Below are positions 4,317 through 10,105 of a stretch of DNA of 64,000 nucleotides, piece by piece. The stretch lies in the NCBI GenBank assembly GCA_965197475.1, contig CBDANF010000002.1:32001-96000 (forward strand), given 5' to 3'. The translations under genes were made by a program, and so were the position numbers. Within the stretch, counting starts at the first letter, position 1. Every line of letters begins with the position of its first letter. The notes below the pieces were generated by a model, which was given only the letters and a program-made list of their open reading frames with translations, did not search any database and was not told the origin of the DNA. This DNA comes from Candidatus Poribacteria bacterium. GTDB taxonomy: Bacteria > Poribacteria > WGA-4E > WGA-3G.

Positions 4317-5308
4317 GTTTGAAGCTCCAATGCTCTAAAAGCATATTTGGCTGTTTGCCGATGTTGGTAAACCTCTGCCTCTGGTGGAGAATTGAAGTGG
4401 AACGGACTGTCTAGTTTATCTAGTTTAGGAGCCAGTTTTTCACCGTATCCACCGATAACGTATATCTCTGATTTTTCGGGAACCTGCATCAACTCATATA
4501 GGGAAATGATGTAATTCATTTCAGAAATAGTAATTGGATTGGAAACTTTTTTGACGACCTGTTTGTGAAAACTACCGTTTGCTGTAATCGTCCAACGTAT
4601 TCCTTCCAATTTCTCATCTTGTCTCGGTAAGAATGAAATTTCCGGCTGACTGATCACCACCCATGTTCCTGCAATGATGATTGGTTTGGGATTAAACACA
4701 GAGATACAACTATGATCATGCCCGCCAGCAAAGACTGCAACACCGTTTTCAGTGTTCCCAACGATTGTTGCTGCACTCATGAATTCAGATGAAAACGGAA
4801 AGGGTTCACACTGATATTTTTGGAGTAGTTCGACTGCCCAACGTCGCTGAGAAAAGTTTAACATACCGCTATTGCCAGCGTGTGTCAAATCCCAAGTATT
4901 TATTTTAGCATTTGCAAGCCGAGATGCGATATAGGTTGAAACAGGTAATGCTGGTCCGTCAGAATAGGAAGGAAACGTTAGAAGCGATTGAAATGCTGAA
5001 CCGATATCCCGTTTGACATCCGTTGGCGTGCCTGTCTGCTCATAATAATCCTCAGATAAAGGCACACGATTATGGGTAGGTTCATAAATAATATTGTTAT
5101 AAACAACACCTTCTCCGAAACTAAGCGGAAAGATTGCTTGATACGTGTAATTGTCAAACTTAGACAAAACCTCTCTAACACATGCCTCAAGCGTCCTTGG
5201 TGATGTAATATCGGTCACCAATTTATAATCAGCGATGATGTCTAACGTATTGTTGAACAGATAGCCTTTCGTATATGAACAACCTATGTCAAGAACCAGG
5301 ATTTGCAT
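4313..5308 (-). CDS. Compact FGGY-family (rhamnulo/fuculokinase-like) sugar kinase
   Basis: LVLDIGCSYTK phosphate-1 motif, DLTHAGNSGM, AGGHDH, AGTW, VIGG. ATG at 5308 is preferred over TTG at 5326. Shorter than typical FGGY kinases. Confidence 0.6.
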   Translation of the reverse strand: MQILVLDIGCSYTKGYLFNNTLDIIADYKLVTDITSPRTLEACVREVLSKFDNYTYQAIFPLSFGEGVVYNNIIYEPTHNRVPLSEDYYEQTGTPTDVKRDIGSAFQSLLTFPSYSDGPALPVSTYIASRLANAKINTWDLTHAGNSGMLNFSQRRWAVELLQKYQCEPFPFSSEFMSAATIVGNTENGVAVFAGGHDHSCISVFNPKPIIIAGTWVVISQPEISFLPRQDEKLEGIRWTITANGSFHKQVVKKVSNPITISEMNYIISLYELMQVPEKSEIYVIGGYGEKLAPKLDKLDSPFHFNSPPEAEVYQHRQTAKYAFRALELQT

Positions 5309-5433
5309 TGCAATACCTCTGCACAAAACTAAAATCTCTTGTAATCACCTTATGTTAACTTACTATTCCTATGATAAAACAGGTATTATCGCGTCTAATG
5401 TATAGTAGTAAATTTACTTCTATTATTTATAGT

Positions 5434-5462
5434 TTGTATCAAATGACCCCATGAGTTATACT
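5434..5462 (+). promoter_or_regulatory. Candidate sigma70 promoter spanning the left junction of the DUF1670 element
   Basis: TTGTAT(5434-39)-17 bp-TATACT(5457-62); the first two T's of the -35 come from host flank. Confidence 0.45.
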
Positions 5463-5529
5463 ATTAGTATTCGTTAAACTAACGGGTAGATGTCCTCGGA
5501 TCCCCGATAATCTATTCATGGAGGTCAAT

Positions 5530-6327
5530 ATGAACCGCAAGAAGGATACCGCCTACGGTATCAATCGACTGGAATCCAAGAATGCCAGAGCCGCGATTAT
5601 TCAGAAGATTTCAGCAGACTTTAATCTAATGCCTCTCGTTGCTGAAGCCTACTATAAACAGATTTCTACCTACTTTGAACAACACGCCGATGTGCAACTC
5701 ACATCAGGGCAAATCTGCTACGAGGCAGTCGCCGCTGAGGAACCCGCAGGCAAACACATCGCTTTAGCGAAAAAAATCTCCTGTCGACTCAAACTCAACG
5801 ATGTTGAAGCCGACCTTGAAGTTTTAGCGACTTATGGGCTCGCAGGTCTCAGACAGCATCGGATCCTCCGATTGACCCAAGAAGCTTATGACCAAGAAGC
5901 CTTGCTGAGTTATGAGGATTTGGCGGTGTTATTAACTACCAGTCCTGCCACCGTCAAACGCGACATCCGAGCGTTGAAGCAGTCCGGCTATTTCGTGATG
6001 ACGCGCGGGGCGAAACACGACATGGGCCCGGGACTGTCTCATAAGACGCAGATTCTTGAGTTGTCCTTCAAAGCATACACCTTCACCGAGATTGAGCAAA
6101 AGACGAACCACTCCGAACGGGCCGTCTACCGCTACTTGAGGGACTTAACACAAGTCGCCACGCTCCATCATCAAGGTTTTCCTAACGCACAGATACGGCT
6201 CATCACTCATCTCTCTGACCGGCTGATCCGCGAGTATCTCTCGCTGTCCGAGGAATACCAACACACCGATCGCATGACCCAACTCCTTCACCCAGAGCCC
6301 GTGGAGAAAAAAAAGGAGGAACTCTGA
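5530..6327 (+). CDS. DUF1670-family protein (HTH-containing), copy 1
   Basis: RILRLTQEAYDQEALLSYEDLAVLLTTSPATVKRDI...TRG...HD...SHK...KTNHSERAVYRYLRD; GGAGG RBS before ATG 5530. Confidence 0.8.
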   Translation: MNRKKDTAYGINRLESKNARAAIIQKISADFNLMPLVAEAYYKQISTYFEQHADVQLTSGQICYEAVAAEEPAGKHIALAKKISCRLKLNDVEADLEVLATYGLAGLRQHRILRLTQEAYDQEALLSYEDLAVLLTTSPATVKRDIRALKQSGYFVMTRGAKHDMGPGLSHKTQILELSFKAYTFTEIEQKTNHSERAVYRYLRDLTQVATLHHQGFPNAQIRLITHLSDRLIREYLSLSEEYQHTDRMTQLLHPEPVEKKKEEL

Positions 6328-7211
6328 TGAGCAAACCTTTGACGCGCACGCAAATCAACGAGAAAAAGTTCAGACGCATCAACGATAAATCGCTACGACA
6401 GTTGCTGATCCACCGCTTTCTCAATGACTATGGTTATGACAAAGGCGAAGTCACTGCCACCGCCATTGTTGATGATATTCTTAAGACCGTTGAAGACTAT
6501 TTCGTGATTACCCTTCCTTTGGAGAAACTCGCCACCGGCGATCAACTCCCGGATGAGCGTTTCTTGAGTTATGGACAACTCGTTTGGATGGCCGTCCCTA
6601 TTGAAGAGCATCCAGAAAGAGGAAAGTCCATCGTCAAAACCCGCATGAAACCCATCATCCTGACTTACCTCGCCGCAGAGGATATTGAATCCTTTCGCAA
6701 CGGTTTCACCTCCCGGCAATTGCGGATCAATCGCTTGGTCCGCTGGTGTCATCAAGCTTATGACCAAGGGGCATTATTGACACAACTCGACTTGGCAGTT
6801 TTGCTCAATGTCTGCGATGCCGTTGTCTGTGATTATGTTAATGAATGGCAAAAAACCACTGGAGAACTCTTGCCCACCCGTGGCAATATCCATGACTTAT
6901 CGGGGGCTATTACCCATAAGAAAGAGATCATAACCCTCTATCTTCAAGGACATCTCACCCCCAGGATTGCCGCAAAGACCAAACACTCTAAGGAGGCAGT
7001 TGACCGATACATTCGCGATTATGAGAGCGTCAAAGTCGTTCGGAAAGCAACCGCAGATATTGATAAAATCTCACAGATTACACGACTTTCTAAACGCGTC
7101 ATCTCTCAATATCTCGACCTCATACCGCAGCACCAACTCCAAGCCATAGATGCAGACCTTGCCAATTCAGACTCAAACGATGAAGCCACTCACCAAGGAG
7201 AAGCCCAATGA
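6327..7211 (+). CDS. DUF1670-family protein (HTH-containing), copy 2
   Basis: RLVRWCHQAYDQGALLTQLDLAVLL...PTRGNIHD...THKKEII...KTKHSKEAVDRYIRD; translationally coupled to copy 1 (TGATG overlap). Confidence 0.8.
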   Translation: MSKPLTRTQINEKKFRRINDKSLRQLLIHRFLNDYGYDKGEVTATAIVDDILKTVEDYFVITLPLEKLATGDQLPDERFLSYGQLVWMAVPIEEHPERGKSIVKTRMKPIILTYLAAEDIESFRNGFTSRQLRINRLVRWCHQAYDQGALLTQLDLAVLLNVCDAVVCDYVNEWQKTTGELLPTRGNIHDLSGAITHKKEIITLYLQGHLTPRIAAKTKHSKEAVDRYIRDYESVKVVRKATADIDKISQITRLSKRVISQYLDLIPQHQLQAIDADLANSDSNDEATHQGEAQ

Positions 7212-7278
7212 GACCCTAATCCTATGTTCCCGACGAACTTTACTTCGCAAAACCGGGGCAGGTGCCTTGAAAATATGG

Positions 7279-7307
7279 TTGACAACCGCTACTGGTTTTG
7301 CTATACT
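7279..7307 (+). promoter_or_regulatory. Near-consensus sigma70 promoter with extended -10, inside the right end of the DUF1670 element
   Basis: TTGACA(7279-84)-17 bp-TATACT(7302-07) with TG at 7299-7300. Confidence 0.75.
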
Positions 7308-7311
7308 TTAG

Positions 7312-7439
7312 ACACGTTTATCGCTAAACGCATCATTTCTCAAAGAGGATGCTCGCGATCCCAACGCAACCCACTCATTAATGATCGCTGGGAAGCCAAT
7401 AAACATCAACCTTCCAGATATCCTATGGTCATTTGATAC
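7312..7439 (+). ncRNA. Candidate structured non-coding RNA (about 125 nt) at the right end of the DUF1670 element
   Basis: Lies directly downstream of the promoter, has no credible ORF, and shows four consecutive stems: CGTTTA/TAAACG, GCATC/GATGC, GCGATC/GATCGC, GGAAG/CTTCC. Confidence 0.4.
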
Positions 7440-10105
7440 TATTTAATGATGACTAATTTTCTCGTCTGTTTAGATGTTGGCGTGGACAATTCGTAAAAGT
7501 ATAGACCACTTGCGGCAGCTTCCCCAAATTCGTTAGAGCCATCCCAATATGCGGCTTTCCCACGACTGATATAAAACCCTGACGTTTGATGTCCAATGAA
7601 GAGTGTCCGCACAGTCTCACCTGCAGTGTTATATACACGTATGGTAATTTCTGCATCCTCAGCGAGTTGATAAGGAATCCATGTCTCCGGATTAAACGGG
7701 TTAGGATAGTTTGCGAAAAGTTTCGTTTTCAGAGGACCACCAGCAGGCATCAACAGATTCTCTAAAAAACGTTTCACTATTGATATTTGTGTAGCATCAT
7801 CAGACAATTCTTCAATTTTTTCGTAAAATGCATGGAGAAGTGCAATGTAATGATCTGAAAGGGAGTAGATATCGGTGGCTTTAATTTTGGGAATGGGTGT
7901 TTGAGGTGGTGCTGCAGTGCCATTCTGGTTTTCTTCAATACTCTTAATTACCAAAATGACATCTTGAAGATCCACTTTTCCATCTTTATTTGTATCATAC
8001 TTCGAATTTGAAGGGGGGCTTTCTCCAAAATGAGCGACAATTACAAGTAGATCAATAATATCAACTTGTCCATCTAAATTAACATCACCCGTGAGTAACG
8101 TTTGAATTCCATCTTCAACTACACGTAACACTTGGTTCACCTCAACATCCTTTAACTTTTGAACAATACCGCTTGGCCAATTGATAATCAATTCATTGAC
8201 CACCTCATTCTGTCCAAGCCCAAAATGGATACGTTTCTGGTCTTGCTGAGACCAGTGGATCCCTCCGTTACGTTCGCGAAGCTGAGTTTTGCCATCAGGT
8301 GTTGTTGCGAACAATCTCGCACCGATTCCATCTCTATTTGAAACTTTCCCTTCTAAATCTATCTGAAGCCAATTGTTTCCACTCCCTACGTTGCGATAGA
8401 GTTGGTCGGGTCCATTGTTATATGGGTAGACACCTCTACCATTGGTTACAAATAGGTCAAGGTAACCATCTAAGTCGTAGTCCCCCATTGTAACGCTCAT
8501 TCCTCTTCCTTCCGTGTTTGCTTCTGCACCGCCTGCTCCAGCAACTTGAATGAAAGAACCATCACCTTGGTTTTCATACAATTGGTTAGGGAGATTTACA
8601 GCACTATTTGAACGTACTATATAGAGGTCAATATCCATATCGTTGTCGAAATCTCCTGCTGCAACGGAACGTGCCTCAACTGCCTCAGTAAAAGGAATTT
8701 TCTGGAAATAGTTTGGTGGAGTCGTAATACAAAGAACAGAATTTGGTTGGTAAACGAGATCAGAGTAAGAAAAGTTTATAGGTTCTACCTCTACTATTGG
8801 GTTTTTTGATGATATGAGTGCCTCAAACCCTGTCCAAGTTGTGTTAGAAGAAGGCATTGTGTGGTATAACACAGTCCACTGAGTTGAATCTGGGTCATAT
8901 CCTACATAAGTTCGCCATTTCTCGTTTTTTGGACGAGCAGCCAACCCGACAACCCTTGGATCAGTTGGGTCAAGTACAAATGTGAAGGACGAAACATTCC
9001 GCTCCCGATTTGTTTGGATGTATTCTCCATCAAAAGCATTTACATTATGTGCTTCTTTTCCGATTGCTAAGTGGAGAAATTGAGATGCCCAATCGGAATG
9101 AACTTCAAATTTGACTTTTCCATCTGTCTTAAAACTAAAACCTTTCTCACCGACGTTAATTATAACGTGTACCTTTATCCTATAAGGATTAGTTTCAGTC
9201 TCTTGTAAATCGCCTGTGTTTTGTATATTCTCTGCTTCGGAAGTGTCAATGAAGGAGCGATAAACACCACATGCTAGAAACGCATCTGGGAGCAGATCCC
9301 CATTGAAATCGGCAAACGTAGCATCCTGTACATTATAAATATTAGGAAAATTAAGTGTTTCTGTTATTTCATTAAAGGGTGAAATAGATGTATCATATAC
9401 GCGTTCAGGATATGAACTTTTACCTATAAAGAGTTCCATATTTCCATCGTTGGTGACATCAGCAAGTTGTGCTAACGCAGCACCTTTTTCAATATGAAAA
9501 AACAATTGTTCATTTACAATCTCAAATCCTCCGTTAGTTTGTGCAAATATTGATGGGGTTACGGGGGTACCTGTTTTGTCATTTTGACTTATCCCAGTGA
9601 TAAGGAGATCCAGTTGTCCATCACCGTTCCAATCAAACCATAGAGGTGATCTTCCTCGAAGAAGCGGCATGTCAATACCAAATGCAGATGCACGCTCAAT
9701 TAGTTTACCATTTTCATTGACATAAAAATGATTAAAATGTGTTATGTTTGAACGGTTAACTCCGCCACCTCCCCCACACAAGACAATCAAATCTTGGTCA
9801 CCGTCATTATCAAAATCTGCCCATGCAACGCCATGTGTGTCCGCAAACGGAAATGCATTCCATACCTCGTCAATAATATCCGTAAATGTACCATCCTGAT
9901 TGTTACGATAGAGACTTGGTTTGTGTTTATGGTTCGTTGCCCATAAATCCAGATATCCATCTCCATCAAAATCCCCCCATGCGTTTCCCCAACTTTCACC
10001 GATGCGCGTGATTCCTGCTTGATGTGAAACATCTTCAAATTGAATTTCACTCCACGCAGTAGGGAGCAGCCAAAAAACAAACAACGACAAAATTAAAATT
10101 CGCAT
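7439..10105 (-). CDS. Secreted FG-GAP/VCBS-repeat, ASPIC/UnbV (CRTAC1-like) protein with dockerin and C-terminal FlgD-Ig-like domain
   Basis: Signal peptide; DFDGDGYLDL-type repeats; NRDGIGA...IHFGLG...WPSG (ASPIC/UnbV); GDVNLDGQVDIIDL dockerin; NYPNPFNPETWIPY tail. Confidence 0.85.
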   Translation of the reverse strand: MRILILSLFVFWLLPTAWSEIQFEDVSHQAGITRIGESWGNAWGDFDGDGYLDLWATNHKHKPSLYRNNQDGTFTDIIDEVWNAFPFADTHGVAWADFDNDGDQDLIVLCGGGGGVNRSNITHFNHFYVNENGKLIERASAFGIDMPLLRGRSPLWFDWNGDGQLDLLITGISQNDKTGTPVTPSIFAQTNGGFEIVNEQLFFHIEKGAALAQLADVTNDGNMELFIGKSSYPERVYDTSISPFNEITETLNFPNIYNVQDATFADFNGDLLPDAFLACGVYRSFIDTSEAENIQNTGDLQETETNPYRIKVHVIINVGEKGFSFKTDGKVKFEVHSDWASQFLHLAIGKEAHNVNAFDGEYIQTNRERNVSSFTFVLDPTDPRVVGLAARPKNEKWRTYVGYDPDSTQWTVLYHTMPSSNTTWTGFEALISSKNPIVEVEPINFSYSDLVYQPNSVLCITTPPNYFQKIPFTEAVEARSVAAGDFDNDMDIDLYIVRSNSAVNLPNQLYENQGDGSFIQVAGAGGAEANTEGRGMSVTMGDYDLDGYLDLFVTNGRGVYPYNNGPDQLYRNVGSGNNWLQIDLEGKVSNRDGIGARLFATTPDGKTQLRERNGGIHWSQQDQKRIHFGLGQNEVVNELIINWPSGIVQKLKDVEVNQVLRVVEDGIQTLLTGDVNLDGQVDIIDLLVIVAHFGESPPSNSKYDTNKDGKVDLQDVILVIKSIEENQNGTAAPPQTPIPKIKATDIYSLSDHYIALLHAFYEKIEELSDDATQISIVKRFLENLLMPAGGPLKTKLFANYPNPFNPETWIPYQLAEDAEITIRVYNTAGETVRTLFIGHQTSGFYISRGKAAYWDGSNEFGEAAASGLYFYELSTPTSKQTRKLVIIK

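Follow-up and report, generated by a model that had tools for sequence, protein, structure and literature searches.

What is a strong promoter doing at the right-hand end of a bacterial mobile element, facing out of it? The locus that raises this question lies in a 64,000-nucleotide stretch of a Candidatus Poribacteria genome (the window, whose positions are used throughout), in which an insertion-sequence-like (IS-like) element carries two genes of the DUF1670 family. An earlier reading of the window, the original prediction, had marked positions 7279 to 7439 as a promoter followed by a structured non-coding segment, and had proposed that the element expresses a guide, scaffold or regulatory RNA used with its DUF1670 proteins, with a source of antisense RNA as a fallback. 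We found that the marked positions belong to the non-coding right subterminal tail of an IS-like element that looks autonomous and has a DUF1670 helix-turn-helix gene pair. On strong comparative evidence, this tail holds a genuine and strong promoter of the sigma-70 type, which points out of the element. As to what the promoter is for, we give about an even chance to a regulatory role in which antisense RNA or transcriptional interference is directed against the convergent host gene.

Comparative evidence for a strong outward promoter

The promoter had been described as TTGACA and TATACT separated by 17 nucleotides (nt), with an extended TG, and this description was borne out. The site scores 11 of 12 consensus matches in addition to the extended -10 TG, and it recurs in homologous tails. 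Sites of this quality number just 221 in the 11.39 million positions of the whole genome (both strands), and 19 of them lie in copies of the tail. We aligned 29 distinct homologous tails from about 27 genomes, with ORF-B identity down to ~80%, after collapsing duplicate and truncated boundary calls at each locus and excluding locus L087, whose mis-called right boundary gave a 461-nt "tail." The TG and the -10 hexamer are kept in all 29 tails, TATACT itself in 27, and at least 10 of the 12 consensus matches in 26; 21 tails have a 17-nt spacer and 6 an 18-nt one (27/29 combined). Across these diverged tails the hexamers, TG and spacing are kept, whereas adjacent positions vary. Four short-tail variants lack ~35 nt of mid-tail and all sequence from the ORF-B stop to the -35; their ORF-B stop adjoins the -35, and the promoter is kept. 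Transcription probably starts near 7313-7315. On the + strand of the window copy, no terminator-like sites were found between the promoter and the element end. No + strand gene lies downstream, and the next gene is convergent, both as originally described (Table 1).

The description of the segment as non-coding also stood. The open frame of the window tail is interrupted by in-frame stops in 6 of 17 relatives and by frameshifts in 2, and tail variability at the three codon positions (0.088, 0.122 and 0.124) reveals no codon-position bias. A copy with an internal deletion, L019, was excluded for that reason from the variability counts and from the Mantel test described below. Two small-protein candidates, a 70-amino-acid (aa) frame at 7224-7436 and a 40-aa frame from an ATG near the inferred start, were rejected on the relatives' stops and frameshifts and on the codon-position variability.

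Table 1. Coordinates of the element, its tail and the adjoining host gene in the window
Feature	Position	Strand	Basis and remarks
Whole DUF1670 element	5429..7442	+	2,014 bp; copy alignments; TT flanks at 5427-5428 and 7443-7444
Left terminal inverted repeat GTATCAAATGACC	5436..5448	strandless	13/13 match with right repeat
ORF-A, 269 aa, DUF1670 protein	5518..6327	+	Pfam PF07900, E = 6.4e-59, and helix-turn-helix matches
ORF-B, 294 aa, DUF1670 protein	6327..7211	+	Pfam PF07900, E = 1.9e-61
Non-coding right tail of element	7212..7442	+	231 nt after ORF-B; aligned with 29 distinct homologous tails
Outward promoter	7279..7307	+	-35 TTGACA 7279-7284; 17-nt spacer; TG 7299-7300; -10 TATACT 7302-7307
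5' inverted-repeat or hairpin domain	7315..7366	+	Minimum-energy folds; includes stem 1 (7315-7320/7325-7330) and stem 2 (7330-7334/7348-7352)
Subterminal motif ACTCAT	7373..7378	strandless	Inverted copy of left-end ATGAGT; left-end and tail alignments; terminal-repeat-like site scan
H2 hairpin or inverted repeat, GATCGCTGGGAAG ... CTTCCAGATATC	7383..7422	+	Adjoins right terminal repeat; includes stem 4
Right terminal inverted repeat GGTCATTTGATAC	7427..7439	strandless	Followed by element end TAT, 7440-7442
Convergent host gene, 888 aa	7439..10105	-	Pfam: FG-GAP, ASPIC/UnbV repeats, dockerin, C-terminal sorting-type tail

A multicopy element at the last codon of cargo genes

The flagged segment had been assigned to the right end of a DUF1670 mobile element, and its non-coding tail does indeed belong to a multicopy element. 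The left end reads ATAG(TTTG)TATCAAATGACC and the right end GGTCATTTGATACTAT; the terminal repeat predicted at the right end is matched by one at the left, and this perfect 13-bp inverted repeat brackets the overlapping ORF-A and ORF-B. Of the copies in the source genome, 18 are full-length (92-100% identity), a nineteenth is internally deleted and a twentieth is a 449-bp derivative. A terminal-repeat search together with copy alignments placed these 20 sites in different flanks. When up to one mismatch was allowed, 40 of the 41 genome matches to the terminal repeat fell at ends of element copies. Because the genome holds no other carrier of the repeat, we rejected the idea that another transposase uses these ends in trans. 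The family, often multicopy, was found in 43 of 176 phylum genomes, which all belong to three families of a single order. Close protein relatives have Candidatus Poribacteria as their source names, and the multicopy element belongs to sponge-symbiont bacteria.

The position of the promoter relative to host genes is strikingly uniform. For 18 of the 20 insertions in the source genome, the right end adjoins a reading frame ending in ...TRKMLILK*, and the promoter is convergent on the 3' end of this cargo gene; among 50 such cargo-gene ends located in the genome with tblastn, 18 are occupied by the element. The host gene in the window ends in KLVIIK*, which aligns with the cargo family, and its Por_Secre_tail and FlgD_ig matches (23.1 and 26.8 bits) are both under the 27-bit Pfam cut-offs. 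When ends are matched by a strict codon pattern, the element follows 12 of 20 AAATAG ends, and no more than 5 AAATAA ends are left without an interruption.

Single-base features of the junctions point to a specific mode of insertion. The right junction always reads AAA TAG, with the third base of the lysine codon and the entire stop contributed by the element (7439-7442). In the window, the last codon AAA occupies 7442-7444 and the stop TAG 7439-7441, and four of these six bases are element-derived. The left flank, read on the host strand, begins with the native gene end, which is AAG TAA, AAG TAG or AAG TGA in 14 of 20 cases and AAA TAA or AAA TAG in 5, the deletion derivative being the twentieth. 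All 29 Poribacteria copies have TT at both flanks, and the distant relative L110 has CG, its native end being CGA TAG and the duplicated pair CG. A 5-bp duplication is compatible with the copies whose native end is AAA TA, whereas 14 of the 20 have TACTT or CACTT on the left and do not fit it. On the simplest model, the element enters behind the second base of the last sense codon and duplicates 2 bp (TT on the + strand; CG in L110). Judged from the junction sequences, the same logic appears to hold in three distant lineages (window, 5424-5432/7439-7444; L110, 1560-1580/3485-3505; L111, 1565-1585/3325-3345). Because the element supplies the third codon base and TAG, the host protein is unchanged, and the left junction keeps the native codon and stop. 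We identified an empty site, in that the orthologous gene in the related genomes G003 and G020 ends AAA TAA and is element-free; a second, for the L004 flank, was sought in five related genomes, and only paralogues of at most 78% identity were returned.

Several other observations bear on targets and copies. The last 200-300 nt of cargo genes share ~68-78% nucleotide identity in many paralogues per genome (7445-8044 of the window against 40 genomes of the genus, >600 matches), and these conserved multicopy 3' ends therefore constitute a large supply of near-identical targets. A subfamily with ~80% ORF-B identity (L047, L048, L062 and L073) has a repeated palindrome, AACCGAGTTTT...AAAACTCGGTT, as its target in place of cargo-gene ends and enters the palindrome at its loop; its sibling L075 sits at a cargo-gene end. 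The 449-bp derivative L020 (G000:C3:94114-94557) resembles a miniature inverted-repeat transposable element (MITE) and joins element positions 1-292 (left, 292 nt) to 1860-2016 (right, 157 nt); it keeps the -10 of the tail promoter without the -35 and sits at a cargo-gene end as full copies do. Through a 232-nt internal deletion of element positions 74-305, L019 (G000:C3:434724-436506) has lost its left untranslated region together with the beginning of ORF-A. Finally, L005 and L007 share their left flank and L002 and L006 their right flank, the other flank differing within each pair, which suggests recombination between copies or segmental duplication.

Folding and covariation of the tail

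Four successive stems had been predicted downstream of the promoter. Their complementary letters are present as described, but the fold that they were to form did not hold up: for 7311-7439 of the window copy we obtained z = -1.26, with 23 of 200 shuffles at least as stable, and the minimum-energy fold uses only stem 2 (GCATC/GATGC) of the four. In 17 related tails stem 2 is nearly constant (three of four pairs invariant), and stem 3 (GCGATC/GATCGC) is broken at two pairs in 10-11 of them. Stem 4 is part of a larger hairpin, H2.

At the level of the family, two hairpin or inverted-repeat domains recur, and to this extent the prediction of a structured segment was upheld. The 5' domain has mean z values of -2.57, -0.61 and -5.71 in groups I, II and III of the tails; it is a long imperfect hairpin in group I, where it is formed in just ~6 of 17 tails, a short strong one in the short-tail group III, and absent in group II. 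The 55-nt H2 segment averages -3.17, -2.11 and -4.10 in the same groups, with a hairpin predicted in nearly all 29 tails. Between groups I and II the sequence of the H2 arms changes while pairing is retained; the two groups are offset by a one-base register shift that neither MAFFT nor the covariance model resolved.

Covariation, which the original prediction had proposed as a check on aligned homologues, was not significant. RNAalifold gave -7.7 kcal/mol for the 17 group I tails, with 0 of 22 predicted pairs compensatory, and no consensus for all 25 long tails (-0.3). Within H2, 73-74% of cells pair across the 29 tails; two-sided changes occur at 5 pairs, compared with 3.5 +/- 0.9 in shuffled alignments, 68-70 of 500 of which did as well. 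A long single hairpin combining 7315-7366 with H2 was rejected for lack of covariation (1 two-sided pair versus 1.2 in shuffles). A search of Rfam with 5300-7600, both strands, returned 0 matches at E <= 1.

The strand on which such structures might act was also considered. Raw fold energy favours the - strand in 26 of 29 tails for the 5' part and in 22 of 29 for H2 (-27 to -30 kcal/mol for H2 in group III). Once composition is controlled, the mean z values for the - and + strands are -1.47 versus -2.47 in the 5' part and -2.58 versus -3.05 in H2; a strand call from G-U pairs was rejected, since the raw - strand preference is gone after this control. DNA inverted repeats would yield the same folding signals as RNA hairpins.

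Distant relatives and the guide RNA question

Metagenomic DUF1670 pairs with ~40% protein identity have the same terminal-repeat core, GGTCAT(T/A)TGA. The right end of L111 comes ~14 nt after the ORF-B stop and that of L115 ~24 nt after it, both without the promoter segment; a consensus scan of the 165-nt tail of L110 gave no strong promoter match. L111 and L110 sit at the ends of Por_Secre_tail genes (34.2 and 39.8 bits versus the cut-off of 27). A need of the DUF1670 proteins for a guide or scaffold RNA such as the original prediction had proposed was not borne out by these near-tailless relatives, by the covariation results or by comparison of the tail with its targets. When we aligned the tail locally with the right end plus target consensus, in both senses, 194/500 and 192/500 shuffles were as good. 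Apparent likenesses between the H2 loop and the cargo flank, and between the inner tail and the right end plus flank, were no better than shuffles, and we rejected a guide RNA derived from or matching the target. A Mantel test on 18 copies gave no link between element distance and flank distance (r 0.03-0.13, p 0.20-0.38), and L047 and L075 have near-identical loops and different targets. The suggested comparison of loops with insertion-site and terminal-repeat sequences thus yielded no likeness or complementarity beyond shuffles.

RNA libraries and junction searches

Sequence from this region is present in RNA libraries. In 14 runs from four sponge metatranscriptome studies, 0.22-0.53 of the sampled words of 7000-7900 were found, and the contigs of four such runs span the genes, the tail and junctions into various flanks, although contigs convey neither strand nor ends and are unreliable as to level. 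Contig depth over the tail is not above that over the genes; as such depth measures abundance poorly and small RNAs frequently go missing, we drew no inference from it. Scans of genome contigs and metagenome contigs for an abutted right-left junction, as in a circle or tandem, gave 0 matches, and the source genome has no tandem element pair. Contigs of the four RNA runs contained no back-joint, which is not evidence of absence given that contigs drop rare forms.

DUF1670 proteins and their candidate sites at the element ends

Pfam searches with both ORFs returned only DUF1670 and helix-turn-helix families, with no DDE, IS110-type recombinase, TnpB or IscB. An AlphaFold2 model of ORF-B (mean pLDDT 87.7) comprises an N-terminal domain without an assigned fold, a winged helix and a sigma-region-4/LuxR-like helix-turn-helix. 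With this model, Foldseek gave no match in the Protein Data Bank (PDB) at E <= 0.001; VIA-align gave helix-turn-helix modules only (Z <= 6.4; residues 128-192 and 193-245, all within 128-258), barely covering the N-terminal domain; and a structure Atlas search gave helix-turn-helix clusters only (scores <= 0.81). PDB sequence searches with ORF-A and ORF-B found nothing under E = 0.19. As modelled and searched, with the N-terminal domain barely covered, the DUF1670 proteins display only DNA-binding folds and no known catalytic fold.

In an alignment of 44 diverse DUF1670 proteins, ORF-B residues A144, H197, K198, H220 and Y228 are invariant and R139, D155, R185, G186 and D190 nearly so, the region 139-228 including the motif RG..HD.G...THK. 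Some of these residues lie outside canonical helix-turn-helix contacts and could have a catalytic role. There are also fused DUF1670 forms, of ~930-950 aa with three stretches and ~520 aa with two (P0133, P0135, P0142, P0143; P0183, P0244, P0262), and the ORF-A/ORF-B pair may therefore work as one unit.

Downstream of the promoter, the conserved blocks are most simply read as candidate DNA sites for the element's own proteins. The motif ACTCAT, ~60 nt from the right end, is likely a protein-binding site; its inverted form, ATGAGT, is repeated next to the left terminal repeat. Reading the left-end and tail alignments by eye, we found that the variable base of the motif (T/C) shifts together at both ends in 5 of 8 group II elements and in all of group I but L064 and L076. 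Of the 8 group II tails, 7 have a second, terminal-repeat-like site 65 nt from the right end, and most elements have such a site ~105-123 nt inside the left end. Multiple sites of this sort are the usual look of protein-binding sites in transposon ends. The left end (window 5433-5475; 29 elements) also has a conserved promoter-like TTGTAT-17-TA(T/A/C)ACT with a -35 that overlaps the terminal repeat. The motif ATGAGTTA occurs there in two or three tandem copies, and ORF-A is preceded by a conserved GGAGGT ribosome site.

Weighing explanations for the tail

The regulatory reading that we favour would work as follows. The tail promoter would fire outward, with a transcript starting near 7314 and running ~130 nt through the ACTCAT motif, H2 and the right terminal repeat. 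With no recognised terminator, this transcript would continue into the flanking DNA, and because insertion is in a single orientation in the last codon of the cargo gene, it would be antisense to the 3' end of the host gene. Insertion would displace the host gene's own downstream sequence 2 kb away, and polymerase arriving from the host gene would otherwise cross ORF-B, ORF-A and the element end in the antisense direction. Such read-through into the element end and genes would be countered by convergent transcription or antisense RNA, and the promoter may perhaps also damp host-gene output. Antisense RNA, the earlier fallback, fits the anatomy best, as the promoter faces a convergent cargo gene in 18 of 20 insertions.

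A number of points weigh against this reading. L111 and L115, and by consensus scan L110, have no such promoter; as promoter-less relatives transpose into the same kind of site, the promoter is dispensable for the family, and any benefit from it is specific to the source lineage. The RNA-library contigs may reflect DNA carry-over, and the interference or host-gene effect is one that we infer from anatomy. There is also a family-wide thermodynamic signal that structured RNA could explain: whole-tail z values from dinucleotide shuffles average -2.03 over the 29 tails, with 16 below -2 (window copy, -1.51). In addition, stem 1 is the sole predicted stem with two-sided changes in the 17 related tails (CG 8, UA 5 and UG 3 at one pair; UA 8, GC 3 and CG 1 at another).

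These last points lead to the possibility that the tail makes a discrete structured end RNA of ~100-130 nt that serves transposition together with the DUF1670 proteins, be it as scaffold, regulator or guide. A strong conserved promoter driving a non-coding segment is what such an RNA would have, and the two recurring hairpin domains (5' part z of -2.57 in group I and -5.71 in group III, H2 negative in all groups), the pairing kept between diverging H2 arms, the lower + strand z of the 5' part in 24 of 29 tails after composition control, and some two-sided changes in stem 1 and the H2 apical helix are all consistent with it. We nevertheless regard it as unlikely. L111, with the same kind of target, and L115 share the repeat core and have almost no tail; tail and target are neither alike nor complementary, and relatedness of copies does not track their flanks; L047 and L075 pair near-identical loops with different targets; covariation is not significant and Rfam is silent; within group I the 5' hairpin forms in only a minority of tails; and the proteins have DNA-binding folds only. 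Less probable still is a more far-reaching version in which the DUF1670 pair is new transposition machinery with a right-end RNA (two hairpins plus flank read-out) as its partner, for instance in licensing or timing last-codon insertion; if true, it would be an RNA-assisted element unrelated to the IS110 or TnpB systems. The hairpins could also act on the - strand, where the element would provide the host gene with "A TAG" and a new 3' untranslated region that ends or stabilises its mRNA, the promoter being a separate matter. The exact restoration of the host stop codon, the raw - strand energies and a short-tail copy with a terminator-like site on the host-sense strand over the -35 region speak for this; the loss of the - strand advantage under composition control, the lack of any terminator-like site on the - strand of the window copy's tail, and the absence of such a tail from L111 and L115 make it, too, an improbable account.

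Two other explanations concern the promoter more directly. Outward promoters that serve expression from circles or tandems are known in other IS families, and here the promoter could drive ORF-A and ORF-B across a right-left junction, as in IS21 or IS911; it is aimed at the right end with no terminator between. Neither an abutted junction in the contig scans nor a tandem pair in the genome was found, however, the left end has its own conserved promoter-like site and ribosome-binding site, and a 2-bp duplication is more typical of cut-and-paste transposition, so that we rate this explanation as distinctly unlikely. The least probable of all is that the promoter-like site and stems are a functionless relic of duplicated element sequence. 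ORF-B 7090-7109 and tail 7324-7343 do form a direct repeat (18/20), and chance consensus matches are possible; yet all 29 diverged tails preserve the hexamers, TG and spacing amid varying neighbours, and the repeat is marginal (1 of 200 shuffles is as good), for which reason we also rejected the tail as a duplicate of the ORF-B 3' end.

Significance

A fixed strong antisense promoter at a third of the 3' ends of one secreted-protein family could shape the surface and secretion biology of sponge symbionts. The promoter is a conserved add-on of a widespread element family that is undescribed as judged by the full-text literature only: a full-text search returned no papers on DUF1670 or PF07900, and titles and abstracts none relevant on Poribacteria insertion sequences or transposases. 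Outward promoters in insertion sequences are well known, and the promoter alone would be a variant of a familiar theme. The bigger surprise is that the element appears to hit the final codon of type IX secretion cargo genes with single-base precision and to rebuild the stop, which makes it a testable case of possibly new transposition chemistry and of "harmless" target choice.

Comparison with known systems

Promoters that read outward from IS ends include pOUT of IS10, which makes RNA-OUT, and those of IS1, IS2, IS5 and ISAba1. The DUF1670 element resembles the IS10 type in having a complete promoter near an element end that reads toward and out of that end. RNA-OUT is a folded antisense regulator that originates at the transposase-proximal end and pairs with the 5' end of the transposase mRNA, whereas the promoter described here lies beyond both genes, and its only fixed antisense partner is the host gene; no inverted repeats link 7311-7442 to the start regions of ORF-A or ORF-B.

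Two other systems encode RNA at their ends. The right-end guide RNAs of IS200/IS605 elements are the omega RNA or reRNA of TnpB and IscB, and the likeness lies in an RNA from the right (3') end that would cross into the flank. Unlike those elements, ours has terminal inverted repeats, no TnpB or IscB, no covarying scaffold, no Rfam match and no sign of flank inheritance. IS110 elements encode their non-coding bridge RNA in an element end and insert with high site specificity at a 2-nt core that is shared or duplicated, and the features that have a likeness here are a putative end-encoded RNA, site-specific insertion and a probable 2-nt core; the DUF1670 element differs in having no IS110-type recombinase, no loops complementary to target or donor, and no circle junction in the contigs scanned.

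With respect to the transposition reaction, the nearest likeness is to the IS630/Tc1-mariner group, which duplicates TA and uses a DDE/D transposase. In common with that group, the element has short terminal repeats, a probable 2-bp duplication, helix-turn-helix modules in tandem and, at each end, more than one candidate binding site. The differences are that the duplicated pair is TT (CG in L110) and not TA, that there are two paralogous genes, and that no DDE domain was detected by Pfam, Foldseek or VIA-align, with the N-terminal domain barely covered. Repeated host sequences are the targets of IS1397 and ISKpn1, which insert in the loops of repetitive extragenic palindromic (REP) sequences, and of the IS1111 group. 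The DUF1670 elements likewise use a conserved multicopy target, and one subfamily uses a palindrome loop; in contrast to those elements, they mainly target the final sense codon in the genes of a protein family, and the element itself rebuilds the stop.

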